From IMG/VR virus record IMGVR_UViG_2124908030_000007: a stretch of DNA of 27,399 bases; one strand, written 5' to 3'. The translations under genes were made by a program, and so were the position numbers. Below the pieces are notes generated by a model, which saw only the letters and a program-made list of their open reading frames with translations, ran no database searches and had not been told where the DNA came from. Within the stretch, counting starts at the first letter, position 1. Each line of letters starts with the position of its first letter. Positions 5,580 through 27,399 of the stretch are shown one piece after another. This DNA is from an uncultured virus (IMG/VR IMGVR_UViG_2124908030_000007). Its lineage: Duplodnaviria; Heunggongvirae; Uroviricota; Caudoviricetes.

Positions 5580-5581
5580 TT

Positions 5582-8040: not shown

Positions 8041-8185
8041 ACGGGTTAGTAAGAGGGGGTGACATAAAAATGATTCGCTGCCGGAAAATCGAGGAAACGG
8101 ATAGCTCAGATTTTTCGGAACTAGAGGCTGCTACTGCCGTGACCGAAAGACTTTTACTACTGGTAAAAAATGACCGCTCGGGAGC

Positions 8186-8275
8186 CTACTGCTCGTCCGA
8201 CTCGTCGCGCATTCCGATCGCCTCAATGTCAGTCACGTCTCGGGGCATCAAGCGCAAGTCTTGGCTTTCGAGCAT
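8186..8275 (-). CDS. 29-aa peptide, distal-most cassette (not in ORF track)
   Basis: MLESQDLRLMPRDVTDIEAIGMRDESDEQ*; palindrome 8329, TATA CTTAAG ~8303-8308, T-tract 8165-8170. Confidence 0.5.
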   Translation of the reverse strand: MLESQDLRLMPRDVTDIEAIGMRDESDEQ

Positions 8276-8380
8276 CGTGTTTCTCTATTGGGGACATTGG
8301 TACTTAAGTGTTTCGATAGGGCGTGCTGTTTGAACCATGGTTCAAAGCGTCTCGTATAAAAAAAGTGACCGCTGTTTTTC

Positions 8381-8498
8381 TCAGATGTGTTCGGGGTTTC
8401 CTTCGAGGAAGCTTTCACCCCATGGGCACTCAGCACACATCTGGCCGAAGTCTTCGGTAACGATACGACCGCCACACTGGACAGGTTTGTCGTGTCAT
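8381..8498 (-). pseudogene. Frameshifted CPxCG Zn-finger microprotein (or sequencing error)
   Basis: MTRQTCPV in one frame continues as CGGRIVTEDFGQMCAECPWGESFLEGNPEHI* in another; a 2-nt loss at TGTCCAGTGTGGC would explain it. Confidence 0.5.
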
Positions 8499-8788
8499 AG
8501 GTCTAGTGGTACGTTAGTCGTGTCATGGCTGTTTGACTTCATTCGAGTCAGGTTTTGGTCGTTTAAGTACTGCGTCATCTCGTCGGACTGGATGACCTGT
8601 CGAAACACTCGTTCGGGTGGATCAAGCACTTCGATCTCCCCTCGCCCGACGTTGCTTTCTTCATACGAGAGACTGGCCACTCCTCCAGCCTCGGGAGAGG
8701 CGGAGAACTTGTGAGCGTATACGCCCAACGAGAGCGTAAACTCGGCTGACCCGTCTTCGTGAACTGTACACATCACCGACTTGTACAT
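8495..8788 (-). CDS. Hypothetical protein
   Basis: ORF coupled to both neighbours. Confidence 0.65.
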   Translation of the reverse strand: MYKSVMCTVHEDGSAEFTLSLGVYAHKFSASPEAGGVASLSYEESNVGRGEIEVLDPPERVFRQVIQSDEMTQYLNDQNLTRMKSNSHDTTNVPLDL

Positions 8789-8790
8789 TG

Positions 8791-8979
8791 TTAGTCGAAG
8801 CCGATGATGCTCACATCACAGTCAGGGTCATTGTACCCGAGGTCAGCGATGTCTTCGATCGTGACCTCAAACTCCGTTTGTGAGAGGTCTCCGATCTCGT
8901 CGCTGGTGCGAGTGGGACCGTTCTCCCAATCGAACTGGTACAGAGGCTGAACGTCTTCGGCTATGGATGAGTTGTCCAT
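8791..8979 (-). CDS. Hypothetical acidic protein
   Basis: ORF with promoter CGAAACGTTTAAG ~9004-9016 (no palindrome). Confidence 0.65.
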   Translation of the reverse strand: MDNSSIAEDVQPLYQFDWENGPTRTSDEIGDLSQTEFEVTIEDIADLGYNDPDCDVSIIGFD

Positions 8980-9004
8980 GTTTATTGTATGGGGCTATGG
9001 GTAC

Positions 9005-9238
9005 TTAAACGTTTCGGGGCGTGATCTGGTTGAAGTCGGGATCATTCATCGAGCCAATGTGTTCAACATGGCTCGCACCCGTGTGTGACTCAAACTCTTC
9101 CGTGGGCATCCAGAAAGGCAGGCACCAGTCACCTGACCGTTTCTCGACAACACGGACAGAGTTTTCGTCAGACTCTACGACGACGATGCCAGCAACGTCA
9201 CTGTCACCGTTATCACGGAACGCCGTTTTAGGTTCCAT
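9005..9238 (-). CDS. Hypothetical cassette protein
   Basis: Leaderless ATG 9238 (MEPKTAF) after TATA CTTTAAG ~9263-9270. Confidence 0.65.
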   Translation of the reverse strand: MEPKTAFRDNGDSDVAGIVVVESDENSVRVVEKRSGDWCLPFWMPTEEFESHTGASHVEHIGSMNDPDFNQITPRNV

Positions 9239-9338
9239 GTATACCCATACGGTGTGACCCAACTTAAAGCCTTCGAATACGACCATGGATTAAACCATGG
9301 TTCAAAGGCGCTCGATAAAAAAAGGCTGGTTCGTGTCG

Positions 9339-9833
9339 TTACTCGACGAGGCTTGCGGCTTCGTCCTCGATCTCGACAGTCTCGTTCTCGTCCGACTCGT
9401 CGGACCCGATGAGAGCCTCGGCCTCCTGTTCGGTCGCGTCGTCCTCGTGCGTGACCTCTTCGAGAGCCTCTTCAAAGGCGCTCTCCGTGGACGAGACAAG
9501 CGTGACGCCGATAGAGTCGATCCCGTCGTCCGAGTCGTAGTCGTCTACGAAGTCGTCCAGCAACTCGTGAGAGACGTACATCGACTCGATCGCGTCGGCC
9601 TGTGTCGATAACACAGCGTACCCGGACGTGGTGCGATCGAGAGTCGCCTCGACAGGACTGCCGCCGAGACTCAGGGAAACGGTGACGAACTCTCCGATCT
9701 GATCCACGATGTTGTCCGAGATGTACATACCCACGATGGACTGATGCTCGTCGCCATCAGGGGAGTCGTAGACTCCGTAGTTCGCGGTAGTGTTAGACTG
9801 TGCAACCTCGACGTTCTGAGTGTTCTGACTCAT
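9339..9833 (-). CDS. Very acidic protein with internal tandem repeat
   Basis: ATG 9833 after TATA CTTATA; repeated motif TTANYGVY..IVGMYIS / TTSGYAVL..IESMYVS; D/E tail. Confidence 0.75.
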   Translation of the reverse strand: MSQNTQNVEVAQSNTTANYGVYDSPDGDEHQSIVGMYISDNIVDQIGEFVTVSLSLGGSPVEATLDRTTSGYAVLSTQADAIESMYVSHELLDDFVDDYDSDDGIDSIGVTLVSSTESAFEEALEEVTHEDDATEQEAEALIGSDESDENETVEIEDEAASLVE

Positions 9834-9915
9834 TACAATCATACGTATGGGTGTGACACGTATAAGGGTTTCGTATCGACTCATGGTTTGAACCATGGTT
9901 CAAGAATAATCAACT

Positions 9916-10044
9916 AAAAAGAAGGATGGGCTGAAGAGCCTCCTTCTCCGACACACCATGTAACCTTGACTTTGTGAGACACCACCTCACTAACAGGGGC
10001 AAGGCAACCCTTTTATTAGTGAGGGAGTCGTTCTCTCACGACTC
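9916..10044 (-). ncRNA. Candidate ~130-nt structured small RNA with two loop-tail pseudoknots
   Basis: TATA CTTAAG ~10069-10074 predicts a start at ~10044; hairpins 10025-10044, 9985-10024 and 9921-9946, then a U-tract; no ORF. Confidence 0.6.
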
Positions 10045-10076
10045 AATTACAAGTAGGGGCTATACCTACTTAAGTG

Positions 10077-10418
10077 TTACGGTTCTTCGTAGACTGTTGG
10101 TTTGCTGGCACCGTTTTGAGGGTACGAACCCGGACAGGCGTAACTGAAAGCATCATTCGCATAATGCTTACAGTTCGGATTGAGGCACCAGTACCGAACC
10201 TCGTTTCGACTTTCGGGACTCACATCGATACGACGAACCATACGGTCAAACTGACACGAAGGGCAGTCTTGTTCGACTACTTCGACTTTGTAGCCAGTAT
10301 TTCCGAATCCGGGCTTAAACGCGACGTGATCAGTCGGTGTACTAATCACGACAACCGAATCCTTTTCTCGATCGTAGTCTCGTGCTATCGCCGGAGCAGG
10401 GGTTTTGTCTCGTGACAT
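10077..10418 (-). CDS. Zn-ribbon protein
   Basis: ATG 10418 with SD GAGGTGA; CPSC...CLNPNC. Confidence 0.7.
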   Translation of the reverse strand: MSRDKTPAPAIARDYDREKDSVVVISTPTDHVAFKPGFGNTGYKVEVVEQDCPSCQFDRMVRRIDVSPESRNEVRYWCLNPNCKHYANDAFSYACPGSYPQNGASKPTVYEEP

Positions 10419-10419
10419 G

Positions 10420-10602
10420 TTAGTCACCTCTTTGTAGTTTCTGGATCTCGTGCTTGTAGTCCTCGTCCGACAACGGAGAGGTTCTCGCGCCAGCCCCTCC
10501 AGTCTTCTTTGAGGTTGGTGGCGTTTCCCTGTGACCACACTCTTCACAGGTGTCGTAGTACAGCGAACCGTCGCATGACGGAATCGGGCAATCTCGTGCC
10601 AT
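10420..10602 (-). CDS. Small Zn-finger protein
   Basis: CPIPSC...CEECG; own TATA ~10626-10631. Confidence 0.65.
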   Translation of the reverse strand: MARDCPIPSCDGSLYYDTCEECGHRETPPTSKKTGGAGARTSPLSDEDYKHEIQKLQRGD

Positions 10603-10641
10603 GTTATTGTATTGGGGGTATGGGTATTTAAGACTTCTGTT

Positions 10642-11001
10642 TTACGCTTCCGAGATTTCGACTTGGCTGCGTGCGTACATCAAGTTAATTACTTCGGTGT
10701 GAGGAGTCGTAACTAGTTCCTCCGGGTCTCCTCGAACCATTTTATCGATCGCACGAGAGACAACGGTTTCAGGGTGTTCCTGCGCCTCATCAGAAACTCG
10801 TTCAAAGTTTCGATGAATCTCGTTAACAGCCGCTTCATACGACAAACCGTCTTCTGAAAACTGGTAGTACAACACGGACTTGCCGGGAACGGTAAGCCCT
10901 ATGTCGTCACCAAGGTTTTCAATCTCACAAAATTCGCCAGCCTGTGAGTCGTACCAAACGCCGTTCTCGTACTTCTCGTTTAGGGCAACTTCTTGTGCCA
11001 T
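10642..11001 (-). CDS. Hypothetical cassette protein
   Basis: Leaderless ORF after palindrome 11051 and TATA CTTAAG. Confidence 0.7.
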   Translation of the reverse strand: MAQEVALNEKYENGVWYDSQAGEFCEIENLGDDIGLTVPGKSVLYYQFSEDGLSYEAAVNEIHRNFERVSDEAQEHPETVVSRAIDKMVRGDPEELVTTPHTEVINLMYARSQVEISEA

Positions 11002-11086
11002 ACCTACGCTTGGGCTGCTACCAACTTAAGGCTTACGTCTCGGGCCACGGTTTGAACCATGGTTCAAAGACGAGAATAAAAAAAGT

Positions 11087-11191
11087 TTATTCTAACGGTA
11101 CTCGGTTGAACGAAATAATCCCGTACATGTAGTACAGGATTATTGCGCTCACGATGACACCGAACGAATATGTCGTGAATACGATGATCAT
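11087..11191 (-). CDS. 34-aa single-TM peptide (not in ORF track)
   Basis: MIIVFTTYSFGVIVSAIILYYMYGIISFNRVPLE*; TAATG overlap with the upstream stop; T-tract follows. Confidence 0.5.
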   Translation of the reverse strand: MIIVFTTYSFGVIVSAIILYYMYGIISFNRVPLE

Positions 11192-12036
11192 TAGTGTTGG
11201 ATAATGGCCACGTCTCGCGGCTGTTCTGACTCGGGCTTGATACAATGAGTACACTCGCCACAGTGCGGGCGATCTTCTGTATCAATCCCGTTATGCTTTG
11301 CTGCCTCGAAGGGGCATAGGATCGCCTCTTCGGGAACGTCCGAAGGTTCTTTGATCGGCTTTTCGTTACCTTCGGAGTCGGTGTATGTTGCCGTAAACTG
11401 CCGGTCGCCATAATCGGCTAAGTCGTTCGACTGGTTTACCACGAAGTATTCGTGGGTCGCGTATTCGTTCCAGTCTAACTTATGACTTGCGGAATACGTG
11501 TACACTTGAACCTCAGGGTACACTTTTTTCGAGATAGTATTCCATTTTTTAATGTCACCGTTATGTCGAAAGTCACCGGCTTCCGAGATACGGATATAAT
11601 TAAATTCCGACTGTTTTCGGTCGGAAACTTGTAGGATCGCGTCAGCCCAAAGGTTCGCGCTAAAGGCGTCCCATAAGTATGATGACAAACGACGCTTCGC
11701 CAACGTCGCGTCATAGATGTTTTCGGTATTATGGGCATAACAGATAGCCCACGGAACCTGACAGGCCCCCGCCTTTGATTGATCCACTTCAGTCGATGCG
11801 GCGTTAGGGCAGTCTGTCGCGCTATTCATGTTTACAATTCCCGTATTTTTGGAGACCTTTGTATTCCCCATAGGCATATAGCCGGACTTTCCGGTATAGC
11901 CGTTCATAAGAATATCGGCCAACGCTGTAACACGTCGGTCGTATGACATACGGTACATTGCGTGAATATGATCACGCAGTCGATCGAAGCCGTCAACGTC
12001 TATTACCGAATACTTACCTCGGGTGGGATCGTTCAT
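11191..12036 (-). CDS. Phage Gp88-like Cys-rich (Fe-S/radical-SAM-like) protein
   Basis: GNTKVSK, DCP..C..CYA, RISEAGDF, VYTYS, CP..CGECTHC pattern recalled from the phage 'gene product 88' family. Confidence 0.7.
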   Translation of the reverse strand: MNDPTRGKYSVIDVDGFDRLRDHIHAMYRMSYDRRVTALADILMNGYTGKSGYMPMGNTKVSKNTGIVNMNSATDCPNAASTEVDQSKAGACQVPWAICYAHNTENIYDATLAKRRLSSYLWDAFSANLWADAILQVSDRKQSEFNYIRISEAGDFRHNGDIKKWNTISKKVYPEVQVYTYSASHKLDWNEYATHEYFVVNQSNDLADYGDRQFTATYTDSEGNEKPIKEPSDVPEEAILCPFEAAKHNGIDTEDRPHCGECTHCIKPESEQPRDVAIIQH

Positions 12037-12140
12037 GGTGTGTCCTCGCTTCTTAGTAGGGGAGTGTTGTACTTAAGGGTTTCGTTCCGGTTTGCTGTTT
12101 GAACCATGGTTCAAAGTATAACTTTCACGAATAACTATTC

Positions 12141-12365
12141 TTATTTTCGTAGACGCTTTCTGTTCTCTTTAGTCATCTCGTAAATATCTTCTTTGTGAAA
12201 CCACTCATCGTGTTTTCGTCCTGTCATTATATTTTCTACTTTTATTTCATACTTGTCGCCTCTGCTATAACCAGTGTATGTTCCGAAAGCATACCCGAAA
12301 GCATTGTCTACTCTTACAATTACGTCGTCACCAAAACCGCTCACCGAGCATTCTGGCTCGTACAT
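12141..12365 (-). CDS. Hypothetical cassette protein
   Basis: Leaderless ORF between palindromes 12098 and 12416. Confidence 0.65.
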   Translation of the reverse strand: MYEPECSVSGFGDDVIVRVDNAFGYAFGTYTGYSRGDKYEIKVENIMTGRKHDEWFHKEDIYEMTKENRKRLRK

Positions 12366-12470
12366 ACTACAACAAACGGGTGCTATTAATATAAATCTTT
12401 TGTTTGACTATACTCTTTGAACCATGGTTCAAAGGTCAGTGAATAAAAAAAAGCGTGTTTTCCTATGGCT

Positions 12471-12713
12471 TCAGCCGAAGAGTTCGCCGAGACCTCGATC
12501 TTCTTCTTCGACCGGAACGTGTGCGACGAGACGATCCCCGAGACGCTTTGCCTCGAAGTCGTACCCGTTTTGTCGGACAGTTCGGTAAAAGTGTCCGATC
12601 TGATCTTCCGAGACGGTGACGCTGGCATACGTGCCATTAATGTCACCTTCGTCAACGTGTGCGTTCGGAATCTGTGCGAATGCGGCTCGTACCTCACTGA
12701 TGGTATCAGTCAT
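12471..12713 (-). CDS. Cassette protein, family B (distant)
   Basis: ISEVRAAF..EDQIGHFYRTVRQN aligns with 15693-15917 and 16707-16931. Confidence 0.65.
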   Translation of the reverse strand: MTDTISEVRAAFAQIPNAHVDEGDINGTYASVTVSEDQIGHFYRTVRQNGYDFEAKRLGDRLVAHVPVEEEDRGLGELFG

Positions 12714-12809
12714 CTCCAATTCAATAGAAGGGTGCCATACGTATAAACCCTTCGTTCCGGACTATGGTTTGAACCATGGTTTAAACGACTGATAAAAAAG
12801 CCGACTACC

Positions 12810-13016
12810 CTACTGCCAACTGGCGTTCTCGTGACTGATGGCACCTTCTGTGTCGATGCCATCATCCGTGATCCTCACGGTCGCACGAGCGCCACAGTCA
12901 CATTGAACCTCACGGGTGATCCCCGTTGAGATATAGTGACTCCGTGATAGTTGGTAGTAGTTGTCGTCACTTTCGCCACACTCCGTACACACACCTTGAT
13001 TAATGGCTTCAACCAT
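12810..13016 (-). CDS. Small Zn-finger protein
   Basis: CTECG...CDCG; second gene of its cassette. Confidence 0.65.
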   Translation of the reverse strand: MVEAINQGVCTECGESDDNYYQLSRSHYISTGITREVQCDCGARATVRITDDGIDTEGAISHENASWQ

Positions 13017-13017
13017 T

Positions 13018-13281
13018 TTAGTTCTCCTCGTTAGAGTATCTCTCGGCTATCGTATTAAACTTTTCGATAGCCTTGTACTTTTTACTGTACTCTTCTGTAT
13101 GTGTTTCACCTTTGTATTTAACTGTAACCGTGTACTGTAAAGTGTCAGGATTGAAGTCCACTGATAGCTCAAGTAAAGTATCAGGGACAAGTTCTGTATG
13201 GAATCCCTCAAATTTTTGACCTTCTATGAATCTATCTAAGTCGTTATATCGTGGGTCTGTTGACGAGGTTTTTGACACCAT
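13018..13281 (-). CDS. Hypothetical cassette protein
   Basis: Leaderless ATG 13281; the track start lies in the palindrome. Confidence 0.65.
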   Translation of the reverse strand: MVSKTSSTDPRYNDLDRFIEGQKFEGFHTELVPDTLLELSVDFNPDTLQYTVTVKYKGETHTEEYSKKYKAIEKFNTIAERYSNEEN

Positions 13282-13381
13282 ATCCAAACAAACGGGTGCC
13301 ATACATATAAACCCATCGTTCTCGCTTGTTGATTGAACCATGGTTCAAAACTGTCAAAAAAAAATCGAACGAGTTTTGCCC

Positions 13382-13801
13382 CTACGCTATCTGGCTAAGG
13401 GCTTCTTCGACCTCTTTTTGTGCGTTTCGTTCGACCGCGCTCTTATCAGTGAAACTGATGTACTCGCGGATGTATCCGACGATGCCGGGTGGCTGGCCAT
13501 CAGTGGGAGTCTCGCCTGATGCCACGACCTCACGCCCGCGTTCTTCCGCAATGTCAACGACCATGTTAAGATAGTTGTTGACGGTCGGGGAAGAATCGCT
13601 TGCGTGTCCGGTAAAGACGGTCACAAGCTCGCGGGACTCGTCGTACACGGCGATCTTTTGCCAACCGTAGGCAATGAGTGCCGTGTTACCGTTATCTTCT
13701 TCTTGCGTCATGAGACGGTTATACTTAGTCGCCTCATTAGGCGTGCGGTCAGTGAACATCTCGACGATCTCTGTCGTGGTAGGCGCGTAGCGTGTCGTCA
13801 T
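13382..13801 (-). CDS. Cassette protein, paralogue of 13929-14345
   Basis: Near-identical core PTTTEIVEMFTDRTPNE...GETPTDGQPP. Confidence 0.8.
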   Translation of the reverse strand: MTTRYAPTTTEIVEMFTDRTPNEATKYNRLMTQEEDNGNTALIAYGWQKIAVYDESRELVTVFTGHASDSSPTVNNYLNMVVDIAEERGREVVASGETPTDGQPPGIVGYIREYISFTDKSAVERNAQKEVEEALSQIA

Positions 13802-13928
13802 TGTTTTTGACAGGGCTTCTTTCGTCCCTGCCTACTTCAGTAAACGGGAGGCACACGTATAAACCCGTCGTTCTCGCCTGTCGTTTGAACCATGGTTCAA
13901 AGAATTAATAAAAAAAGCGAGCCGTCCG

Positions 13929-14345
13929 TTAGTCGATTTTCTGTAGCTCTTCTATCACACTACTGAAAGCTTCCTCTTCGACAGGACTCCTACTACCGAA
14001 GCTAACGTAGCTCTCGATGAATTTCACGATCCATGGCGGTTGTCCGTCCGTGGGCGTCTCGCCCGATGCGACGACTTCGCGCCCACGCTCTTCGGCAATA
14101 TCGACAACCATGTTGAGATACTTGTTCACAGTCGGAGACGAGTCGCTCGCGTGTCCGGTGAACACAGTCACAAGCTCGCGGCTCTCGTCATACACGGCAA
14201 TCTTTTGCCAACCGTAGGCGATAAGGGCCGTATTGCCGTTATCCTCTTCTCGCGTGATGAGTCGATTGTATCGCGTAGACTCATTAGGCGTCCGATCAGT
14301 GAACATTTCAACAATTTCCGTCGTGGTGGGGTCGTATAGCGACAT
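13929..14345 (-). CDS. Cassette protein, paralogue of 13382-13801
   Basis: Tandem paralogue with many synonymous differences and a divergent C-terminus. Confidence 0.8.
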   Translation of the reverse strand: MSLYDPTTTEIVEMFTDRTPNESTRYNRLITREEDNGNTALIAYGWQKIAVYDESRELVTVFTGHASDSSPTVNKYLNMVVDIAEERGREVVASGETPTDGQPPWIVKFIESYVSFGSRSPVEEEAFSSVIEELQKID

Positions 14346-14477
14346 TGTTGTGTCTGAGACAGGGATTCTTTTTCGTCCCTGCTCATTTCATTAGAAGGGT
14401 GCCATGCGTATAAACCCGTCGTTCTCGTCTGTGCTTTGAACCATGGTTCAAACAATCGATAAAAAAAAAGAGACTAC

Positions 14478-20511: not shown

Positions 20512-20623
20512 GGTTGGAACACCATACTCAACCAAATGGGAGGCATACATATAAACCCATCGATGCCGTCTACGCTTTGAACCATGGTTCAAAACATAAC
20601 GAAAAAGAGAATATTACTCTACG

Positions 20624-20899: not shown

Positions 20900-20996
20900 A
20901 CATGATCATAGTGCCGGGTACACATAAACCCATCGCTTTCGTTTGTTCTTTGAATCATGGTTCAAACCATGACGAAAAAGAGAATATTACTCTACG

Positions 20997-21272
20997 TTAT
21001 TCGTCGGACTTTTCAATATCCATGCCTACTGCGCCACTCGATGAAAGGAACACCGACTCGATGTAGTATCCCTCAGGTGGATTAAACAGCGTGTCGTCAT
21101 CCTTCATCCAAACGACAACATGACACACAGACGAGCCGTTAATCCTGTCAATTCTGTTATCGTTTTGTGAGAGTTCTCTTGCAAAGTTTTTTACCTTTTT
21201 ATAGTCTTTTTTGTTCGTCGCACTAACTTTCACACGATTACCGTTCACCGTTTCGGTCGTACCTGAGACCAT
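20997..21272 (-). CDS. Cassette protein, 'PPEGY.IE' family
   Basis: Tandem paralogue with near-identical promoter and terminator flanks. Confidence 0.8.
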   Translation of the reverse strand: MVSGTTETVNGNRVKVSATNKKDYKKVKNFARELSQNDNRIDRINGSSVCHVVVWMKDDDTLFNPPEGYYIESVFLSSSGAVGMDIEKSDE

Positions 21273-21362
21273 ACCTGATCATAGTGCCGGGTACACATAA
21301 ACCCATCGCTTTCGTTTGTGCTTTGAACCATGGTTCAAACATGGATAAAAAAAAGTATTTTC

Positions 21363-21581
21363 TTAGACTTCTTTTATATTGAAACTTACCCCTATGTGTC
21401 CAACAGATCCAGTTAACTTATCGCGTAAGTACATCGCTTGATATTTTGGTAACGGATCTGATAATTGTTCTGTCTCGATACCCGGACCTGCGATGATTAC
21501 AACGTGTGTTCTCTCATCGGGAAGATCAAACGGATCAATATTCGTTATTTCTTCTTTCGCTTTTTCGACAGTTTCACTCAT
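21363..21581 (-). CDS. Hypothetical protein
   Basis: Third gene of a 3-gene cassette. Confidence 0.6.
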   Translation of the reverse strand: MSETVEKAKEEITNIDPFDLPDERTHVVIIAGPGIETEQLSDPLPKYQAMYLRDKLTGSVGHIGVSFNIKEV

Positions 21582-21741
21582 GATTGTTACCCAATCGGTG
21601 TGGATCCCGATCGTCTGCGTACACTTTTATGTCTGTATCGTTCGAGTCCCCTCGGGTGTGAAGAATCACACCGTTTTGAACGTTCGTGTGATCGTGAATC
21701 GTCGCAGGGACGTAACTCATGTCAGTTACTTTAGTTGTCAT
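21574..21741 (-). CDS. Hypothetical protein (55 aa)
   Basis: ATG 21741 preceded by SD GGAGG. Confidence 0.55.
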   Translation of the reverse strand: MTTKVTDMSYVPATIHDHTNVQNGVILHTRGDSNDTDIKVYADDRDPHRLGNNHE

Positions 21742-21883
21742 TATTTTCCTCCGGATCGTCGTGAACATTATCAATACGGCGCAGGCTTTTCCATGATTCA
21801 GGCGGCCTTGCGACACCGTGATAATGGTCATACAACTTACACGGCTCACTCTCCGGCATTTCGGGACTATCTGGTCCTTCCAT
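21731..21883 (-). CDS. 50-aa protein (not in ORF track)
   Basis: Leaderless MEGPDSPEMPESEPCKLYDHYHG...NNDN* at the expected distance from TATA CTTTATA. Confidence 0.55.
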   Translation of the reverse strand: MEGPDSPEMPESEPCKLYDHYHGVARPPESWKSLRRIDNVHDDPEENNDN

Positions 21884-21979
21884 ACTCAACCAAACGGGAG
21901 GCTACCATATAAAGGCATCGATTCTCTTTTCGCTTTGAACCATGGTTCAAACATATTGATAAAATTTTTGTTGTTATTC

Positions 21980-22174
21980 TTACAACTCTTTTTGAATTTG
22001 ATCTGACAGTTTTTGTGCCTCGTCTGTTGTTAACAGTATTTCCCTTTTAGGATCATCGGGGTGTCCTTCTTTAAGTGACACCCATCCTTCTCCGGGTATT
22101 TCTGTTGTCATTATTTCAACCCACATTTTTGGTGGTGTTTTCTCACCAATAGGGACTTCTTTTTCTTTTATCAT
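21980..22174 (-). CDS. Hypothetical protein, distant paralogue of 22180-22404
   Basis: P..W.E...V..K.G...P....L...E..K pattern shared with its neighbour. Confidence 0.65.
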   Translation of the reverse strand: MIKEKEVPIGEKTPPKMWVEIMTTEIPGEGWVSLKEGHPDDPKREILLTTDEAQKLSDQIQKEL

Positions 22175-22179
22175 GTTTA

Positions 22180-22404
22180 TTATAGCACCTCTTTTAGTTC
22201 ACTTATCATTTTTTCAACCTCTCGCTCGTTTAGTGTAACCTTTTTGTAAGGAAACTCGGGATCCGTTCCTGCCTTGATTGTTACCCTCTTATTGTCGTTT
22301 TTGGTGACACGAGGGTAATCCTCTTTTGTGTTGTAACTGACAACTTCAAGCCAAAGGGTAGGCCCTTCTTGTGGGTCGAGCGGGCTTTCTGTGAGTTGTC
22401 TCAT
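22180..22404 (-). CDS. Hypothetical cassette protein
   Basis: Leaderless MRQLTES. Confidence 0.65.
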   Translation of the reverse strand: MRQLTESPLDPQEGPTLWLEVVSYNTKEDYPRVTKNDNKRVTIKAGTDPEFPYKKVTLNEREVEKMISELKEVL

Positions 22405-22501
22405 CACGTCTATCCATACGAGACGGGGATATATAAAGGCATCGGAGTCGTCTACGCTTTGAACCATGGTTCAAACAATCAAAAAGAACCCGAACACTAC
22501 C

Positions 22502-22777
22502 TTATCGAATAGGTTCGAACCCCTCGTTACTCATGCGTTCGCTTGCTATTTCATATGCCAGATCGTCATCATAATCAGACAATCCGGTAAGTTTACCCGA
22601 CGTAAACACACGCACGTTTGACCAATCACCGCTCGCATCATACACGTTAAACGTGTACCCGCCTGACCACACCGCAGCGTTACCCTCATCGTTAAACCCG
22701 ATAAGGCGAGCGTTGTTAGTTGCTCTTGCGATTTTGTGACTCCGGAGGCTTCGATCGTCTTGGCTCATTTGTGCCAT
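22502..22777 (-). CDS. Hypothetical cassette protein
   Basis: Leaderless MAQMSQ. Confidence 0.7.
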   Translation of the reverse strand: MAQMSQDDRSLRSHKIARATNNARLIGFNDEGNAAVWSGGYTFNVYDASGDWSNVRVFTSGKLTGLSDYDDDLAYEIASERMSNEGFEPIR

Positions 22778-22865
22778 CGCGTTTGTATACATGGGAGGCA
22801 CACGTATAAACCCATCGCTTTCGTCTGTACTTTGAACCATGGTTCAAACATGGTCAAAAGAAAAC
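22778..22865 (-). promoter_or_regulatory. Representative inter-cassette module: T-tract terminator / palindrome / BRE-TATA / leaderless start
   Basis: - strand: TTTTCTTTT GACCATG TTTGAACCATGGTTCAAA GTACAGACGAAAGCGATGGG TTTATACG then 25 nt to ATG; the same geometry occurs at nearly all copies. Confidence 0.85.
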
Positions 22866-22881
22866 CGATTATTTCACGACG

Positions 22882-23172
22882 CTACTCGTCGGTTTTTACT
22901 ATTTCGAGGGCTACGTGGTACGTCGAAGTAATGAACACTCGTTCGATCTCGTATCCTTCAGGTGCCTCAAAGCCGACTTTGCTACCCGTTAGCCAGATAG
23001 TCGCGTAATATCGTGGCGACGAGACTACCCGATCAACACGAGGATCTCCCCGATCAAGGTCTGCCGCGAGACGACGTGCTTCAGTTTCGTCACTATTTCC
23101 CTTTGCGGTGACACCGATACGCACTTCATTATCGTTAACGACCGGATTGCGCCTTTCGGTTTGTGACTCCAT
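22882..23172 (-). CDS. Cassette protein, 'PPEGY.IE' family
   Basis: VNDNEVRIG..DPRVDRV..FEAPEGYEIERV. Confidence 0.75.
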   Translation of the reverse strand: MESQTERRNPVVNDNEVRIGVTAKGNSDETEARRLAADLDRGDPRVDRVVSSPRYYATIWLTGSKVGFEAPEGYEIERVFITSTYHVALEIVKTDE

Positions 23173-23254
23173 CACGTATCAACACAAGAACGGCATACGT
23201 ATAAACCCATCGTTTTTGTCTGTGCTTTGAACCATGGTTCAAACATGGAAAAAA

Positions 23255-23419
23255 TTAGTTTTCCCAAACAATTCCATGAATCTCACAAATAACTTCATAT
23301 TTCGGAATATCTTTTTCTCGTTTCGCATCAAGTTTTCCTTCACGCTTGTGTTTGCGTACATAAGTCGAACGATCACAACCGGGTTCTACACACGTTTTTG
23401 GTGGATCTCCGTTTAACAT
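23255..23419 (-). CDS. 54-aa CCCH Zn-finger microprotein (not in ORF track)
   Basis: MLNGDPPKTCVEPGCDRST...ICEIHGIVWEN*. Confidence 0.75.
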   Translation of the reverse strand: MLNGDPPKTCVEPGCDRSTYVRKHKREGKLDAKREKDIPKYEVICEIHGIVWEN

Positions 23420-23509
23420 AGATCACTATCATACTCCTATGTACTTAAATCCATCGTTTGACGTTATTCTTTGAACCATGGTTCAAACATGGTAAAAAAG
23501 GAGGGCTTC

Positions 23510-23674
23510 TTAGTTTTGCCAGAGAATCCCGTGAATCACGCAAATCACTTCGCGTGTGGGGGCGTCTTTGTGTCGATTCGTGTCGAGTTTTGCGTCACGC
23601 TCATACGTGCGCTCGTGGGTCGAACGATCACACTCGGGTTCGGTACACGTCTCAGGTGGAGTTTCGCTCACCAT
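23510..23674 (-). CDS. 54-aa CCCH Zn-finger microprotein (not in ORF track)
   Basis: MVSETPPETCTEPECDRST...ICVIHGILWQN*. Confidence 0.75.
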   Translation of the reverse strand: MVSETPPETCTEPECDRSTHERTYERDAKLDTNRHKDAPTREVICVIHGILWQN

Positions 23675-23771
23675 GAATAACTATTGTACCCCCATATACT
23701 TAAAGCCATCGTTCGACGTTGTGCTTTGAACCATGGTTCAACCGTGTCTAAAAAAATGACAGCCAGTTGTC

Positions 23772-24068
23772 TTATAACTGTTCGTAATGAACCCGTTCGA
23801 CTGACTCAATCATGTCAATATCAATACACGTATCCATGAAGTCCTTAAGCCCGTCATCGTCGCCCATTTGAATATCAGTATCGAAACACAATCCGACACC
23901 GATGTGCTGATCCCCGACGAGTCCGTAAACGTTTACGTCGAACACGTCGCCCGACATAAATTCATGAACATCCGCCATCCTTTTAGTCGCCTCAACGACG
24001 GCACTATTTGCGTTATCCACTACACTCGTTCCGACGATGACCTCGAACGCCTCGGTTTCTTGCGCCAT
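23772..24068 (-). CDS. Hypothetical acidic cassette protein
   Basis: Leaderless ORF between palindromes. Confidence 0.7.
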   Translation of the reverse strand: MAQETEAFEVIVGTSVVDNANSAVVEATKRMADVHEFMSGDVFDVNVYGLVGDQHIGVGLCFDTDIQMGDDDGLKDFMDTCIDIDMIESVERVHYEQL

Positions 24069-24164
24069 TACAAATCAATAGAAGGGCGGGATACATATAA
24101 ACCCATCGCTTTCGTCTACGCTTTGAACCATGGTTCAAACATGGCAAAAAGAAAGCGCCGTTAT

Positions 24165-24383
24165 CTAACGTCGGTCTTTTTCGATAGCAAACCAGTTTTG
24201 ATCAAATCCGACAAACATCCAGTCATCATCGAGTCGGTGTGCTTGAACGAGTCCTTTAAACGAAAACTGATGTCGCGTCCCGCGACTACTTTCATGAATT
24301 ATCACATCGTTGGGTCCACTTGCTTCGATCTCTTTAGCCACATCTATCGCCTCATCTACTTCTCCGTGGGTCACTTCTCCCAT
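24165..24383 (-). CDS. Hypothetical cassette protein
   Basis: Leaderless ORF between palindromes. Confidence 0.7.
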   Translation of the reverse strand: MGEVTHGEVDEAIDVAKEIEASGPNDVIIHESSRGTRHQFSFKGLVQAHRLDDDWMFVGFDQNWFAIEKDRR

Positions 24384-24476
24384 ACTCTACCAAAGGAGAG
24401 GCTACCATATAAAGGCATCGATGCCGTCCTCGATTTGAACCATGGTTCAAACGTATTCAAAAAAAAACGCGGTTCC

Positions 24477-24716
24477 TTAGAATTTCTCTTCGGTTTTTTG
24501 AATTGCCTTTTCTGCCGCAGTCTCCGCATCAGCGTCGAACCTTCGGATAACACGCTCGGCGAGCCTTTGAGCGAACATCTTTTTCTCACCCGTGTACCCA
24601 CGTTCTGCGATCTTCAGGCGAGCATGACCGTGCCACGTATCCGGCATGACGCCCGCGATCTGTTCGTCCATGGTGTTCTTCGCCTCTTCGACAACTTCGG
24701 CATGGCTTTCTGCCAT
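24477..24716 (-). CDS. Hypothetical helical cassette protein
   Basis: Leaderless MAESHAE. Confidence 0.7.
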   Translation of the reverse strand: MAESHAEVVEEAKNTMDEQIAGVMPDTWHGHARLKIAERGYTGEKKMFAQRLAERVIRRFDADAETAAEKAIQKTEEKF

Positions 24717-24801
24717 ACTACAGTAAAGGAGACGGGGATGTATAAAGGCATCGATGCCGTCCTCGCTTTGAACCATGGTTCAAAACATCGTCAAAAAAAA
24801 A

Positions 24802-25122
24802 TTATTTCTTATGCCAGTTCCATCCTTGTCCTGCCCCTTGGCTATTACTCGCACGAATAGGCTGTCCGGGTATTCCAGAAACCGGTTCTCTGCCTCTGTA
24901 GATAACGTTTACTTTTGTACCATCTTCTTTTGAAACTGTCAACATTTGTCGGTTTCTGTGAGTAGTTGTTATATTCTCTACAGTAATCTCATAATTATCA
25001 AATGTTTGATCAGAATTTTTGAGTTTATACCCTGATGGCAAAGGTAGACCGACAATACATTTGTCATGTACAATATCAGTTAATACAAGCGTGTCTCCTT
25101 CTTCCGGGTGTTCGTGTCCCAT
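24802..25122 (-). CDS. Hypothetical cassette protein
   Basis: Leaderless ORF; visibly AT-rich. Confidence 0.65.
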   Translation of the reverse strand: MGHEHPEEGDTLVLTDIVHDKCIVGLPLPSGYKLKNSDQTFDNYEITVENITTTHRNRQMLTVSKEDGTKVNVIYRGREPVSGIPGQPIRASNSQGAGQGWNWHKK

Positions 25123-25217
25123 ATGCTATGATGGTGCCGGGTACATATAAACCCATCGGTGTCGTCTTTGCTTTGAACCATGGTTCAAAACATGGTCAAA
25201 AAAAACGCTCGCTTTTC

Positions 25218-25457
25218 TTACCGCTCTCGAACCTCGTAATGATCCACACCGTCAGGCGCGTTGTCGCCCGAGGGGTAGCCCGTGCCTCGCGTGAGGGCGT
25301 CGTCAACCTCATGCGGCTTAAGGCTCTCCGTCTCAAACAACACGTTGCCGTCTGCGTCCACCGCCACCACGTCGTGCGTGAAGGGGTTCGTGCGACCGTG
25401 ATCGGGATGCTCAGACTGCCGTAGCCTCTCGTGATGCGCTGTGACCTTTCGGGCCAT
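25218..25457 (-). CDS. Hypothetical cassette protein
   Basis: Leaderless MARKVT; visibly GC-rich. Confidence 0.7.
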   Translation of the reverse strand: MARKVTAHHERLRQSEHPDHGRTNPFTHDVVAVDADGNVLFETESLKPHEVDDALTRGTGYPSGDNAPDGVDHYEVRER

Positions 25458-25561
25458 ACACATGGGTACGGGTGCTATTGGTATAAATGCTTCGATGCCG
25501 TCCTCGCTTTGAACCATGGTTCAAAGACTTGCCGCAAAAAGAAAGCCGCCCTCCTGTCTCG

Positions 25562-25849
25562 TTATTTTTCGACTTTTCTGACTTTGCCTATGTCGGTGTA
25601 CATATCCAGCCCATCGTGGTATCCTTGAATGTATCCAATATCCGCGTACCACGTATGAGTCTCGTATTCATCCTGAAGCGGTTCAAGTGGCTTGAATTTC
25701 ACATCTGAGAAACTACGACTTTGGACCACAGCCTCGAACGAACGAGTCCCGAGATGATTAGCCGCACGACTGTTCACATGAACCGTCACCCGATCGCCCT
25801 CGTTTAGTTCTCTCGACGACACAACTTTCGTGTTGTCTTTTTCAGACAT
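25562..25849 (-). CDS. Hypothetical protein (SH3/KOW-like beta pattern)
   Basis: ATG 25849 after TATA TTTATA ~25878-25883; LNEGDRVTV motif. Confidence 0.65.
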   Translation of the reverse strand: MSEKDNTKVVSSRELNEGDRVTVHVNSRAANHLGTRSFEAVVQSRSFSDVKFKPLEPLQDEYETHTWYADIGYIQGYHDGLDMYTDIGKVRKVEK

Positions 25850-26064
25850 CACGATTTTAGTTAGGGGACCTAATGGTATAAATGTTTGGTCAGTACGCTT
25901 ACACGTCTTACGGAATAAAAGAATATTTTTGGTAATCACAAAACGTCTTTGTCAATACACAAAACTAGATGGTTGTATTAGAGTCGATGTGTGCTAAATA
26001 AAGTGGCACGCGCTGCGGTTCTTTGAACCATGGTTCAAAACGTCGCCAAAAAAAAGCGAGTTTC

Positions 26065-26283
26065 TTACAAGTCCTCGTTGTTTTCAATTTTCTCCACGAT
26101 TTTCTCCAATTCCTCGCGCTCGGCCTTCAGGCCAGCGACACGCGCGTCACTCATGGCAAACTCAATATCGCGCGTGAACGCAACGTCTCGCGCGTGTTGC
26201 TCCTCCTCCAATTTATCGTCGATTTGTCGGATCGCGCGTTTCGCCCTGTAGTACTGCTTCGATTTTTGGCTCATGGAAGCCAT
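26065..26283 (-). CDS. Small coiled-coil cassette protein
   Basis: Heptad-like helical sequence; leaderless. Confidence 0.65.
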   Translation of the reverse strand: MASMSQKSKQYYRAKRAIRQIDDKLEEEQHARDVAFTRDIEFAMSDARVAGLKAEREELEKIVEKIENNEDL

Positions 26284-26382
26284 ACCCTATCAAGGGACGG
26301 GGGACATATAAGTCTGTCGATGCCGTCCTCTCTTTGAACCATGGTTCAAACATCGTCAAATAAAAAGCGGCAAGTTTTGCCG

Positions 26383-26598
26383 TTAGTCGTATTGTTGTTG
26401 CTGATCCAACATGAAGATTCCCTGATGCGATTCGTCTAATTCTTCTGATATAATTCTGTTGATAGTTTCCTCGATCTCATCAGCCGAGATCTCATCCTCA
26501 AGCTCAATTTTCGACTGAAAAGCGCCTGAAATTTTCGCCAGCGCAGTCGCACGATTGTCGTAACTTTCCTCCAATCCGGGTGGTACTTGGCTTCCCAT
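26383..26598 (-). CDS. Hypothetical acidic cassette protein
   Basis: Leaderless MGSQVPP. Confidence 0.65.
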   Translation of the reverse strand: MGSQVPPGLEESYDNRATALAKISGAFQSKIELEDEISADEIEETINRIISEELDESHQGIFMLDQQQQYD

Positions 26599-26694
26599 AC
26601 CCGATCATAACACCGGGTACATATAAACCCATCGGAGTGGCTCTCGCTTTGAACCATGGTTCAAACATCGACAAATAAAAAAAAACGGTGTTCG

Positions 26695-26859
26695 TTAAAT
26701 TAGACCGTTTTCAGCCAACGGCGACTTACACCCACAATCAGGATGGCTGTTACGTTGGTCCGGATCAATACGCCGACCGTGGGGGCAAATAATCGTTCCG
26801 CCGATATCAGTAGACCACTCATCACCCGCAATCGACTTGAGCATGGTTTCACTAACCAT
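26695..26859 (-). CDS. 54-aa Zn-binding microprotein (not in ORF track)
   Basis: MVSETMLK...CPHGRRIDPD...PDCGCKSPLAENGLI*. Confidence 0.7.
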   Translation of the reverse strand: MVSETMLKSIAGDEWSTDIGGTIICPHGRRIDPDQRNSHPDCGCKSPLAENGLI

Positions 26860-26957
26860 ACTACATCATAGGACGGGGGACATATAAATCCGTCGAAGTT
26901 GTCCTATCTTTGAACCATGGTTCAAAACCAATCGACAAATAAAAAAGAACGATCGTG

Positions 26958-27122
26958 TTATTCGTTCGTCACTTTGCCGTGAATCACGCACACCGCTTCG
27001 CGCACGGGTGCATCGTCGTGGGGATCCGTATCGAGTTGTGGGTCGCGCTCGTGGATCCGAACGTGGGTCGAGCGGTCGCAGTGAGCATCGGGGCACGTCG
27101 CGGGCATGGTCTGAGTCACCAT
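26958..27122 (-). CDS. 54-aa CCCH Zn-finger microprotein (not in ORF track)
   Basis: MVTQTMPATCPDAHCDRST...VCVIHGKVTNE*, paralogue of 23255 and 23510. Confidence 0.75.
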   Translation of the reverse strand: MVTQTMPATCPDAHCDRSTHVRIHERDPQLDTDPHDDAPVREAVCVIHGKVTNE

Positions 27123-27203
27123 ACCCGATCAAGGAGAGGCATACGTATAAACCCATCGAAGTAGGTTAGACTTTGAACCATGGTGCAAGACCGATCGGCA
27201 AAT

Positions 27204-27246
27204 AAAAAAAAAGACAGCAACAGGATTCCGGTAATCCTATTGCTGT
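27204..27246 (-). terminator. Hairpin plus T-tract terminator
   Basis: ACAGCAA-C-AGGATT / AATCCT-A-TTGCTGT inverted repeat followed on the - strand by a long T run. Confidence 0.55.
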
Positions 27247-27398
27247 AATTGTGCGAGTATCTCAGCGTTCGCCACTTGAGCAGGACCGCTTAGATCGCTC
27301 ATGAGAACCGTGATACCGTCTTTTGATTGATCGAGGTGTTTACCACATACTGGCATCCAACCTCTCTCAGCGTGTTCTGACGGTTCTTTGTAAATCGT
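27237..27398 (-). CDS. 3' end of a gene running off the window
   Basis: Open frame ...GWMPVCGKHLD...EILAQLQQ* followed by terminator and palindrome 27172. Confidence 0.55.
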   Translation of the reverse strand, partial: TIYKEPSEHAERGWMPVCGKHLDQSKDGITVLMSDLSGPAQVANAEILAQLQQ

Positions 27399-27399
27399 T

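Follow-up and report, generated by a model that had tools for sequence, protein, structure and literature searches.

We find that a stretch of viral DNA of 27,399 nucleotides (the window; 27 kb of a parent contig of 144,532 bp was read here) carries an array (7165–27399, − strand) in which some 47 small genes, all in one orientation, form 41 transcription units and which is punctuated by 41 copies of an 18-bp palindrome, TTTGAACCATGGTTCAAA. Judged from its genes and their layout, the window belongs to an uncultured tailed virus of haloarchaea similar to HGTV-1, of which it is the hyperplastic arm rich in ORFans. In the reading we prefer, to which we assign a probability of roughly two in three, this HGTV-1-like arm uses the palindrome as the operator of a regulator, and the repeated modules around it drive cassette turnover by homologous recombination. 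The array is a new example of a layout of gene control and gene turnover already known from the cultured relative HGTV-1.

As in HGTV-1, + strand genes for a metallophosphatase and a SprT-like protein converge on small genes arrayed on the − strand. In the window the convergent genes occupy 55–5493 (metallophosphatase, 55–750; SprT-like, 4198–4830; Dam-type methyltransferase, 4963–5493), and the first two align it with 101.5–116.9 kb of HGTV-1, where the counterpart of the array lies in the syntenic arm at 128–143.6 kb. Every array gene is on the − strand and the GC fraction of the cassettes varies between 0.33 and 0.62, which agrees with the co-oriented units of differing base composition described in an earlier note on this DNA. 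Nearly all array proteins, for which the earlier note had suggested a part in early host takeover or anti-defence, are ORFans; 15 of the 47 have homologues in HGTV-1, 13 of these within its own array, and 10 of the 47 have homologues in the L118 virus, at 37–76% identity. Discordant gene pairs number 9 of 55 in the comparison with HGTV-1 and 3 of 36 in that with L118. Gene order is mostly kept among the relatives and cassette content is turning over, so that of the gene capture and shuffling proposed earlier the turnover stands, together with two deletions described below, and free shuffling does not.

With up to three mismatches allowed, the window holds 41 palindromes against 0.03 expected by chance, although about four or five of these modules may not be independent because the window has near-identical duplicated segments whose ends fall at assembly gaps. 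The 41 copies claimed earlier are thus correct as a total, comprising 33 exact copies (0.00 expected), six with one mismatch and two with two. They are confined to 8329–27189, with none in 1–8328, at spacings of 244–1164 bp, close to the 235–1160 bp first estimated. Exact copies lie at 8329–8346 (with a CTTAAG-type TATA box, heading a 29-codon ORF and then a 291-aa gene, 7165–8040), 11051–11068 (a unit of three genes), 12098–12115 (heading a GP88-like 281-aa gene, 11191–12036), 12416–12433, 13884–13901 and 14435–14452 (heading, each via a leader with a hairpin, g139, 13382–13801, and g138, 13929–14345), 15197–15214 (heading a 221-aa HhH-glycosylase-like gene, 14478–15143), 15644–15661 (in a hybrid module left by a 519-bp cassette deletion), 16222–16239, 16657–16674, 16985–17002 and 17353–17370 (both inside a duplicated segment, 16945–17567), 17662–17679 (inside another, 17588–18140), 18113–18130, 18632–18649, 19593–19610, 19961–19978, 20576–20593, 21322–21339, 21934–21951, 22458–22475, 22831–22848, 23226–23243, 23470–23487, 24122–24139, 24434–24451, 24767–24784, 25172–25189, 25508–25525, 26022–26039, 26333–26350, 26648–26665 and 26909–26926. 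Single mismatches are found at 9887–9904, 13332–13349 and 23725–23742 and, stated to affect one arm only, at 12768–12785, 15971–15988 and 20949–20966; the copies at 9289–9306 and 27172–27189 have two.

The information-content profile of the modules shows that the palindrome is better conserved than its surroundings, as had been noticed: all 18 positions carry 1.56–2.0 bits, compared with 0.19–0.97 for the 13-nt spacer and 0.74–1.51 for the T-run, while the promoter elements reach 1.67–1.83 (CGA) and 1.47–2.0 bits (TTTA).

We scored module anatomy on the − strand across the 41 units, with offsets counted from the palindrome. An oligo-T run lies within 30 nt upstream (five or more T in 36 units, four or more in 40), and the palindrome follows it by 8–12 nt in 36–40 of 41. 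Downstream, a BRE-like CGA occurs at offset 13–15 in 38 units; 39 have a TATA-like hexamer (TTTATA, 29; TTTAAG, 3; CTTAAG, 3; CTTATA, 2; TTTATG, 2), always at an offset of 20 nt; and in 38 an ATG that opens 28 codons or more lies at offset 44–64 (31 of them at 49–53). The palindrome at 26022–26039 heads the sole unit with neither CGA nor hexamer at the usual offset, and its ORF is distant. The representative module (18575–18665, − strand) reads oligo-T, about 8 nt, the palindrome at 18632–18649, a 13-nt spacer, CGA, 4 nt, TTTATA and the ATG at 18581. By position, the start codon is of the leaderless type, coinciding with the expected 5′ end of a leaderless mRNA; the centre of the palindrome lies about 60 nt ahead of it in the window and about 41–45 nt ahead in L118 and L035. 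Whether all palindromes are intergenic, as the earlier note held, depends on accepting these leaderless starts, given that some 16 mechanical ORFs (counted by eye in the ORF list) begin at the central ATG of the palindrome; such ORFs are read-throughs of the promoter. The order of elements given in that note was seen in most of the 41 units, and its view of the cassettes as self-contained agrees with the terminator and promoter predicted for each. We infer that the modules have real promoter and terminator activity.

Each transcription unit would, in our preferred reading, be fronted by one composite regulatory module consisting of the preceding unit's oligo-T terminator, the palindrome, the variable 13-nt spacer, the CGA, the TATA box and the start codon. 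The palindrome would most likely serve as operator for a lineage-specific regulator, a dimeric protein with sequence-specific DNA binding that is probably virus-encoded and would switch the roughly 40 promoters of this class together. We lean toward a role in the temporal shut-off or timing of what would be early genes, by activation or by repression. Supporting the operator reading, which the earlier note had listed and which appears plausible from the sequence, are the anatomy and fixed spacing in 38–40 of 41 units. No DNA-binding family was found among the 47 array gene products in Pfam, PHROGs or NCBIfam, and the structure model of g138 matched none of the solved folds. Since a module of 45–90 bp recurs every 250–1200 bp, general homologous recombination would delete, duplicate and replace cassettes, which would account for a gene content that is patchy among relatives. 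The gene set of HGTV-1 includes RadA, a Holliday-junction resolvase and RecB-like or PD-(D/E)XK nucleases.

Archaeal upstream activating and operator sites include those of Ptr2, the GvpE UAS next to the BRE, and sites of the TrmB and Lrp families. Like the window palindrome, they are dyad-symmetric and lie just upstream of or abut the BRE/TATA. They are degenerate, however, and serve one or a few promoters, whereas the window has about 40 near-identical copies in 19 kb.

The closest precedent is HGTV-1 itself (NC_021328.1), which the analogues named in the earlier note (integrons, T4-type phages and HF1/HF2) had missed. According to a 2014 review (PMC3950731), through which we know the original description (Sencilo et al. 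2013, RNA Biol 10:803), most ORFs of one arm are preceded by a motif that combines a TATA-like box with an inverted repeat and that was likened to the promoter-early stem-loops (PeSLs) of T4, so that a PeSL-like role had already been proposed in print. In HGTV-1 we found 21 modules in which a T-run is followed by the palindrome CTCCTCGTGGCACGAGGAG, with 0–3 mismatches, and then by TATA-like boxes. The two arrays belong to the same virus group, genome arm and orientation and contain orthologous cassettes, and in both a T-run, a perfect or near-perfect palindrome and a TATA-like box precede small ORFan genes. They differ in that the palindromes are unrelated, in copy number (21 with 0–3 mismatches vs 41 with 0–2), and in that HGTV-1 has a TATA-like box 7 nt past the palindrome, with a second BRE/TATA some 40 nt beyond that box, in place of the single BRE/TATA at 20 nt in the window. 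In L118 we counted at least 25 modules, in which GTTTCACCATGGTGAAAC stands 4 nt upstream of the TATA box; compared with the window palindrome, both arms are altered symmetrically around a common CCATGG core. Such symmetric differences between lineages are as compatible with a hairpin as with a dimeric protein. L035, whose g138 homologue is about 51% identical, has the exact 18-mer of the window three times, 6 nt from the TATA box instead of 20. The palindrome sequence is lineage-specific, differing among the window, HGTV-1 and L118. Its distance to the TATA box also varies by lineage (20 nt in the window, 6 in L035, 4 in L118 and 7 in HGTV-1), so it is not obvious that all act on TBP/TFB in one way.

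In published descriptions of T4-type phages (Arbiol et al. 2010, PMC2839356; Comeau et al. 2014, PMC4122927), PeSLs are composite terminator and promoter modules repeated between the ORFan genes of hyperplastic regions, forming transcriptionally self-contained cassettes with indels and replacements via homologous recombination between modules. Their parts are bacterial, however: the promoter is of the sigma-70 type and has an AT-rich UP region, and the terminator is the G/C stem-loop itself. The window has an archaeal BRE/TATA and an oligo-T with a sequence-invariant palindrome between them, and mini-circles have been demonstrated for PeSLs but not for the window array. The likeness is an analogy, not homology.

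The palindrome might instead act as a structure, either an RNA hairpin in read-through transcripts or a DNA cruciform, and so complete termination, keep units insulated or mark a site for processing. T4 PeSL stem-loops do terminate transcription, as PMC2839356 describes. The window palindrome, regularly placed 8–12 nt past the T-run in 36–40 of 41 units, can fold (−9.4 kcal/mol; −12.6 for the HGTV-1 version), and its two arms stay complementary through the changes between lineages. The fold is nevertheless no better than that of shuffled sequences (z = −1.6 and −0.4; HGTV-1, −2.1), and because the palindrome comes after the T-run, transcripts ending there never contain it. To our knowledge, archaeal termination at oligo-T needs no hairpin. 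Beyond pairing, 33 of 41 copies have exactly the same sequence in the midst of drifting flanks, and in none of the eight variants, with match rows read by eye, is a change paired in the opposite arm. We consider a structural role unlikely.

Slightly less probable still is that the palindrome is a site for a host transcription factor borrowed by the virus, with different palindromes reflecting different hosts. The palindromes do differ between viruses that possibly have different hosts, and a host activator of viral promoters, Sta1 for SIRV1, is known from Sulfolobus. The exact 18-mer, sought in one genome from each of 185,579 species, gave 43 matches, all single sites and none haloarchaeal; this speaks against a host regulon built on exactly this site, although the test is weak as host sites are usually degenerate. 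Also, L035 and the window have the site in common even though their proteins are only about 51% identical. The haloarchaeal tailed virus HF2 provides the relevant comparison. Its intergenic repeats (class I, 58 bp, seven copies; class II, 29 bp, two copies) are reported by Russ, Pfeiffer and Dyall-Smith (2021, PMC8707807) to be promoters proven by reporter assay and primer extension, which supports our preferred reading of the window modules, and to be active in uninfected Haloferax without viral factors, which favours a host factor. As described there, they resemble the window modules as repeated, class-specific BRE/TATA promoters that are conserved among relatives and proposed to bind viral regulators; they differ in numbering 9 rather than 41, most without a perfect upstream palindrome reported, and in heading long operons rather than one-gene cassettes. 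They have no sequence similarity to the window module (a phage-collection search gave no match).

Two cassette deletions bear on how units are exchanged. The cassette at 18141–18574 (− strand; a 147-aa gene, 18159–18602, plus module parts) is present in the copy at 17570–18962 and absent from the near-identical copy at 15100–16000, leaving an indel of 519 bp. As the duplicated segments end at assembly gaps, this indel may separate different strains that the assembler merged, and not two copies in a single genome. The crossover lies within the shared stretch from BRE to start, outside the palindrome. A 373-bp cassette at 20903–21275 (− strand; a 91-aa gene, 20997–21272, and the module of the palindrome at 20949) is skipped in a contig of run X1, where 44 nt of promoter fit either side. 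Runs X1–X4 belong to a single study, and the source sample may be among them. Both deletion products retain the spacer of the upstream module, which places the crossover downstream of the palindrome in two of two resolved events.

Integrons need IntI next to attI, their attC sites keep structure and not sequence, and their cassettes lack promoters and are exchanged at the attC site itself; the window array resembles them in that an inverted-repeat element stands between small cassettes of one orientation, and has none of these four features. It is very improbable that a dedicated site-specific recombinase captures and excises cassettes, in integron fashion, by crossover at the palindrome: cassette boundaries do match modules, content differs strongly among relatives, an X2 contig leaves the window exactly at a palindrome's upstream edge (17003; any different upstream neighbour would do the same), and two weak joints go back (X3, 21340 to 20595; X4, 27162 to 26910), but these joints are of low depth, with sides of 34 and 37 nt, between paralogous cassettes, both resolved exchanges fall in promoter homology, no cassette lacks a promoter, gene order has largely been kept, and a search for a recombinase found no tyrosine or serine enzyme among the window's 64 ORFs and no recombinase or integrase in the HGTV-1 annotation. 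The earlier note's label "integron-like", applied to a sequence-conserved repeat, is accordingly dropped.

Runs of N mark assembly gaps at 4076–4095, 17568–17587 and 18963–19005. The second joins two duplicated segments and creates a hybrid ORF at 17394–17609. Contigs of runs X1 and X2 extend 63–65 real letters into the third, which, judging from the duplicate copy, probably hides one more palindrome module.

The 18-mer TTTGAACCATGGTTCAAA occurs exactly 33 times in the window (0.00 copies expected by chance), and when mismatches were allowed the count rose to 41, with six copies differing at one position and two at two (0.03 expected). Thus, the earlier note was right to place 41 sites here, although only 33 of them are exact and eight are near copies. 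All lie within 8329-27189, at palindrome-to-palindrome spacings of 244-1164 bp. On the minus strand, a run of five or more T residues is found no more than 30 nt upstream of the palindrome in 36 of the 41 units (four or more in 40), CGA occupies offsets 13-15 past it in 38, and 39 have their own TATA-like hexamer at a fixed offset of 20 (TTTATA, 29; TTTAAG, 3; CTTAAG, 3; CTTATA, 2; TTTATG, 2). The ATG of an ORF of at least 28 codons follows at offset 44-64 in 38 units (49-53 in 31 of them); measured from its centre, the palindrome precedes the start codon by about 60 nt. These counts bear out the described order of oligo-T, palindrome, BRE, TATA box and leaderless ATG, and the geometry is that of a predicted haloarchaeal BRE/TATA promoter with a leaderless mRNA.

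The palindrome had also been described as the best conserved part of the module, and it is: information content is 1.56-2.0 bits across all 18 positions, against 0.19-0.97 bits in the 13-nt spacer that follows. The CGA reaches 1.67-1.83 bits, the TTTA 1.47-2.0 and the T-run 0.74-1.51. About 16 of the mechanical ORFs, as we read the ORF list, begin at the ATG in the palindrome centre; because only some frames are open, we took these as promoter read-throughs rather than coding sequences. Gene callers can begin ORFs at this internal ATG, so starts in such arrays need checking. In Halogranum tailed virus 1 (HGTV-1; NC_021328.1), a cultured relative, the annotated start of gene 279 (gp090, GP88-like; 129604-130428 of the record) overlaps a palindrome at 130,416-130,434, and the ATG found at the usual distance from the proximal TATA is some 75 nt within the annotated gene; the same over-extension is seen in the mechanical ORFs of the window.

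Three N runs interrupt the window, and near-identical segments stop at two of them. The duplicated pairs are 16945-17567 and 19553-20175 (99% match), 15122-15672 and 17588-18140 (97.7%), and 15588-15972 and 18575-18962 (98.7%), and the copies differ mostly in homopolymer lengths. The four sequencing runs whose contigs we used all come from one study, which possibly includes the source sample (organism label, hypersaline lake metagenome). At the gap 18963-19005, contigs from two runs extend 63-65 real letters inside; therefore the N runs are assembly gaps, and this one probably hides one further module. A contig bridging the gap 17568-17587 was found in none of the four runs, depth being 0 there since repeats were skipped. 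As the near-identical segments end at these gaps, double counting is possible for about four or five modules. The duplication is either a true tandem or two strains joined by the assembler. Across the N gap, a hybrid ORF (17394-17609) combines the first 22 nt of the gene for a 221-aa protein with the last 174 nt of a 182-aa gene; it is explained either by a 2.6-kb tandem duplication, of which it would be the junction, or by a scaffold that wrongly joins two strains. At 15244-15614, a copy of the 124-aa gene (17709-18083) is split into two ORFs by homopolymer-length differences, which are either sequencing errors or the mark of a decaying duplicate. A contig from one run (X1) has 111 other letters in place of 40 nt at 8508-8549, a strain difference within the 97-aa gene at 8495-8788.

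The proteins of the window are listed under a contig of 144,532 bp. On its plus strand, genes for a metallophosphatase, a SprT-like protein and a Dam-type methyltransferase converge on the minus-strand array. HGTV-1 (143,855 bp) is arranged in the same way, its plus-strand metallophosphatase, SprT and methyltransferase genes at 101-117 kb converging on small hypothetical genes of the minus strand at 128-143.6 kb. By tblastn, 15 of the 47 array proteins of the window have HGTV-1 homologues, 13 of them inside the HGTV-1 array (129-142 kb). From the contig, the shared gene layout and these homologues, we identify the window as part of an uncultured virus of the HGTV-1 kind, sampled in a hypersaline lake metagenome, and specifically as its ORFan-rich arm. 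No close relative was found in the phage collection, which gave just 125 bp at 73% to HGTV-1; nor did the GP88-like and SprT-like proteins retrieve one from IMG/VR. At its downstream end the array has two genes, 8791-8979 and 8495-8788, whose HGTV-1 homologues (126.4-127.0 kb) are on the opposite strand; therefore the boundary between the convergent blocks has moved or been inverted.

A passage of PMC3950731, with Sencilo et al. 2013 as its source, describes a motif of a TATA-like box plus an inverted repeat ahead of most ORFs in one arm of HGTV-1; the motif resembles the promoter stem-loops found in T4-type phages, a resemblance that prompted the suggestion of a role in transcription regulation and genome shuffling. 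In our own reading of the record, HGTV-1 has 21 copies of CTCCTCGTGGCACGAGGAG with 0-3 mismatches (128,694-142,130), each about 8 nt past a T-run and followed 7 nt further by a TATA-like box; in its modules the ATG is preceded, at about 25 nt, by a second BRE/TATA. The two related viruses carry their arrays in syntenic arms, and both place a TATA-like box and an inverted repeat before most ORFs (21 modules in HGTV-1, 41 in the window), but the sequences of the inverted repeats differ. The array of the window belongs with that of HGTV-1 to one type of motif array, to which it adds a new palindrome and a new spacing.

Further occurrences were traced through a paralogous pair of array genes, g138 (13929-14345) and g139 (13382-13801), whose family has six metagenomic relatives. 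L118, a 16.3-kb IMG/VR viral contig, carries a member of this family and no fewer than 25 modules, whose palindrome is a third sequence, GTTTCACCATGGTGAAAC; it stands 4 nt ahead of TTTATA or CTTAAG, the ATG following about 25 nt on. Its CCATGG core is identical to that of the window palindrome, and three positions per arm are changed symmetrically. L035, a 1.3-kb metagenome scaffold, encodes a g138 homologue (about 51% identical) and has the exact TTTGAACCATGGTTCAAA three times, with the TATA box 6 nt away as against 20 in the window. In IMG/VR the 18-mer is present at 2 single sites and its 16-mer core at 5; metagenome loci with the palindrome number 67, of which 65 have a single site, and the 43 genome loci with the 18-mer are all single sites, none haloarchaeal. 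Outside the window and L035, the 18-mer is a chance singleton. The exact HGTV-1 19-mer is confined to HGTV-1 in IMG/VR, and the L118 and HGTV-1 palindromes are multi-copy nowhere but on their own contigs. A high-GC metagenome contig, L016, was rejected as a relative: its two 18-mers, 461 bp apart, lie within a longer repeat of about 45 nt (1640-1690 and 2100-2150) of a different family, which has the palindrome in common with the window by chance. Just upstream of the first module of L118, flanked by a homing-endonuclease-like gene and by a 277-aa ORF, an AT-rich non-coding stretch (2640-3080) holds several families of 18-21 nt direct repeats and may be an origin or control region. A full-text literature search with the palindrome cores matched unrelated primers only, and no subsequent study of HGTV-1 promoters was found by searching the literature. 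The accessible text of the 2026 HGTV-1 host paper (PMC13532342) does not mention the motif, and the fosmid halovirus paper PMC3316494 speaks of palindromes only in the CRISPR sense, the terms promoter, intergenic and inverted repeat being absent from its text.

Nearly all array products are ORFans, mostly acidic like those of salt-in halophiles. The idea of cassettes gained, lost and shuffled among relatives holds for content, which is patchy (beside the 15 of 47 proteins common to HGTV-1, L118 has 10 and L035 three), but less so for order, which is mostly kept (discordant pairs among shared genes, 9 of 55 against HGTV-1 and 3 of 36 against L118). Cassette GC ranges from 0.33 to 0.62, in agreement with the differing base composition remarked on earlier, and this spread suggests that cassettes were exchanged with viruses whose composition differs greatly. 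Two adjacent paralogues, 23255-23419 and 23510-23674, have GC contents of 38% and 54% at 57% amino-acid identity.

Two cassette losses could be read directly. Removing exactly one 519-bp cassette from 17570-18962 yields segment 15100-16000. In a 780-nt X1 contig (depth 8.3), position 20902 is followed directly by 21276, so that one 373-bp cassette is missing, and 44 nt at the joint fit either side. Both products combine the spacer of the upstream module with the start region of the downstream one. The kept upstream spacer places the crossover in the identical BRE-TATA-start stretch, downstream of the palindrome; these losses are homologous recombination between repeats, not site-specific exchange at the palindrome. 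Homologous recombination between repeats is reported for the promoter-early stem-loops (PeSLs) of T4-type phages in a section of PMC2839356, and the HGTV-1 annotation includes RadA, a Holliday-junction resolvase and several nucleases. Precise loss of a cassette through exchange inside the promoter part, seen here directly, is new, and provides sequence evidence for a PeSL-like turnover that had previously only been suggested for HGTV-1. Loose contig ends at the module edges 17003, 22402 and 24374, weak signals, faintly hint at further cassette variants. Two joints that go back along the array, found in contigs rather than raw reads, were not used as evidence of cassette mini-circles of the kind known for PeSLs, given their short sides (34 and 37 nt), low depth and position between paralogous cassettes.

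Among systems outside the HGTV-1 type, the array is of the same general kind as the intergenic repeats of halovirus HF2, only far denser. The likeness lies in sequence geometry; HF2 repeats are active promoters by reporter assay and primer extension, according to an excerpt of PMC8707807. No sequence similarity to the HF2 class I/II repeats emerged: 50,697 phage records searched by blastn, with a 91-nt module as query, returned two chance matches (E 3 and 10), neither to a halovirus. With T4-type PeSLs the array shares an intergenic terminator-promoter composite repeated among the ORFans of a hyperplastic region, as well as indels or replacements between relatives with crossovers in the modules (519 and 373 bp here). 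In the PeSL, however, the early promoter is of the sigma-70 type and preceded by an AT-rich region. The PeSL stem-loop terminates upstream transcription; the window palindrome can fold (-9.4 kcal/mol, z -1.6) but lies after the T-run. Since its promoter is an archaeal BRE/TATA, the array is not a member of that class; it works in the PeSL manner with archaeal components. The integron-like reading of the earlier note fails on all four of the defining features examined: no recombinase family, and so no IntI-type tyrosine recombinase with attI, was found among the 64 ORFs of the window (nor is an integrase or recombinase in the HGTV-1 annotation); attC sites are imperfect inverted repeats that keep structure while sequence varies, whereas the palindrome is invariant in 33 of 41 copies; integron cassettes are promoterless behind one common promoter, whereas the units here have their own TATA-like box (39 of 41) and T5+ terminator (36 of 41); and integrons cross over inside the repeat site, whereas both resolved deletions do so between BRE and start.

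How might the palindrome work? Folded in silico as RNA, the palindromes give weak hairpins (-9.4, -7.6 and -12.6 kcal/mol; z -1.6, -0.4 and -2.1), located after the T-run. The palindrome is most likely read sequence-specifically by a dimeric protein rather than acting as a mere hairpin, because its sequence is invariant within the genome while the spacer drifts freely, because single-arm variants are uncompensated, and because each lineage has switched to a different, still symmetric, palindrome. We favour a virus-encoded regulator, as the site is lineage-specific and absent from haloarchaeal genomes. The searches for such a regulator returned little: PHROGs matched two of 49 proteins, both to families of unknown function; NCBIfam gave one weak match among 48; a model of the g138 family (pLDDT 66.5) had no Foldseek match at E <= 0.001; the Atlas offered no usable match for a 79-aa protein and only leads of 0.83 for a 152-aa zinc-finger protein; the 221-aa protein had no match when searched by sequence in the PDB; and the ORFs upstream of the L118 array yielded a homing-endonuclease repeat only, no regulator. 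An RNA search of the window found no Rfam family and no tRNA.

The HF2 repeat promoters, in the same excerpt of PMC8707807, are active without viral factors. By analogy, the near-consensus array promoters would probably fire on entry, and a palindrome-binding protein would then time them or shut them off, an activator role being equally possible. A broader reading, to which we give a probability of roughly one in eight, joins these elements: regulator and palindrome would form lineage-specific pairs, the palindrome would have swept through all 20-40 promoters of an array by gene conversion between modules, so that the operator of an entire regulon evolved in concert, and the bound protein would both time transcription and stimulate module exchange. 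If this sweep reading is true, the array is a dedicated, self-homogenising system of cassette exchange in archaeal viruses, not a passive by-product of repeats.

The window virus and L118, with a fragment in L035, provide second and third natural examples of what had been a single-virus observation in HGTV-1. Two features are new, a lineage-specific palindrome within a conserved architecture, which points to a co-evolving regulator, and one palindrome common to the window and L035 at different spacings. The palindromes across lineages form a natural series for how archaeal viruses time gene expression. Since HGTV-1 and its host are culturable and the host genome was published in 2026, as the accessible text of PMC13532342 reports, the predictions are open to bench testing.

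Two genes of the g138 family differ from the other units in having a 35-40 nt leader with a hairpin (window 13799-13846 and 14343-14397, minus strand). The hairpins, CAGGGAC..GCCCUG, have predicted energies of -12.2 and -13.6 kcal/mol (z -2.6 and -3.7). In L118 and L035 the homologues are without such a hairpin. The HGTV-1 homologue, gp074, has a hairpin in the corresponding position but built on another stem, GGAGGGAC..GCCCUCC (36400-36462, minus strand, in L128, a piece of the HGTV-1 record; HGTV-1 about 136,400-136,462), and the leader hairpin may be a conserved element of the g138 gene family.
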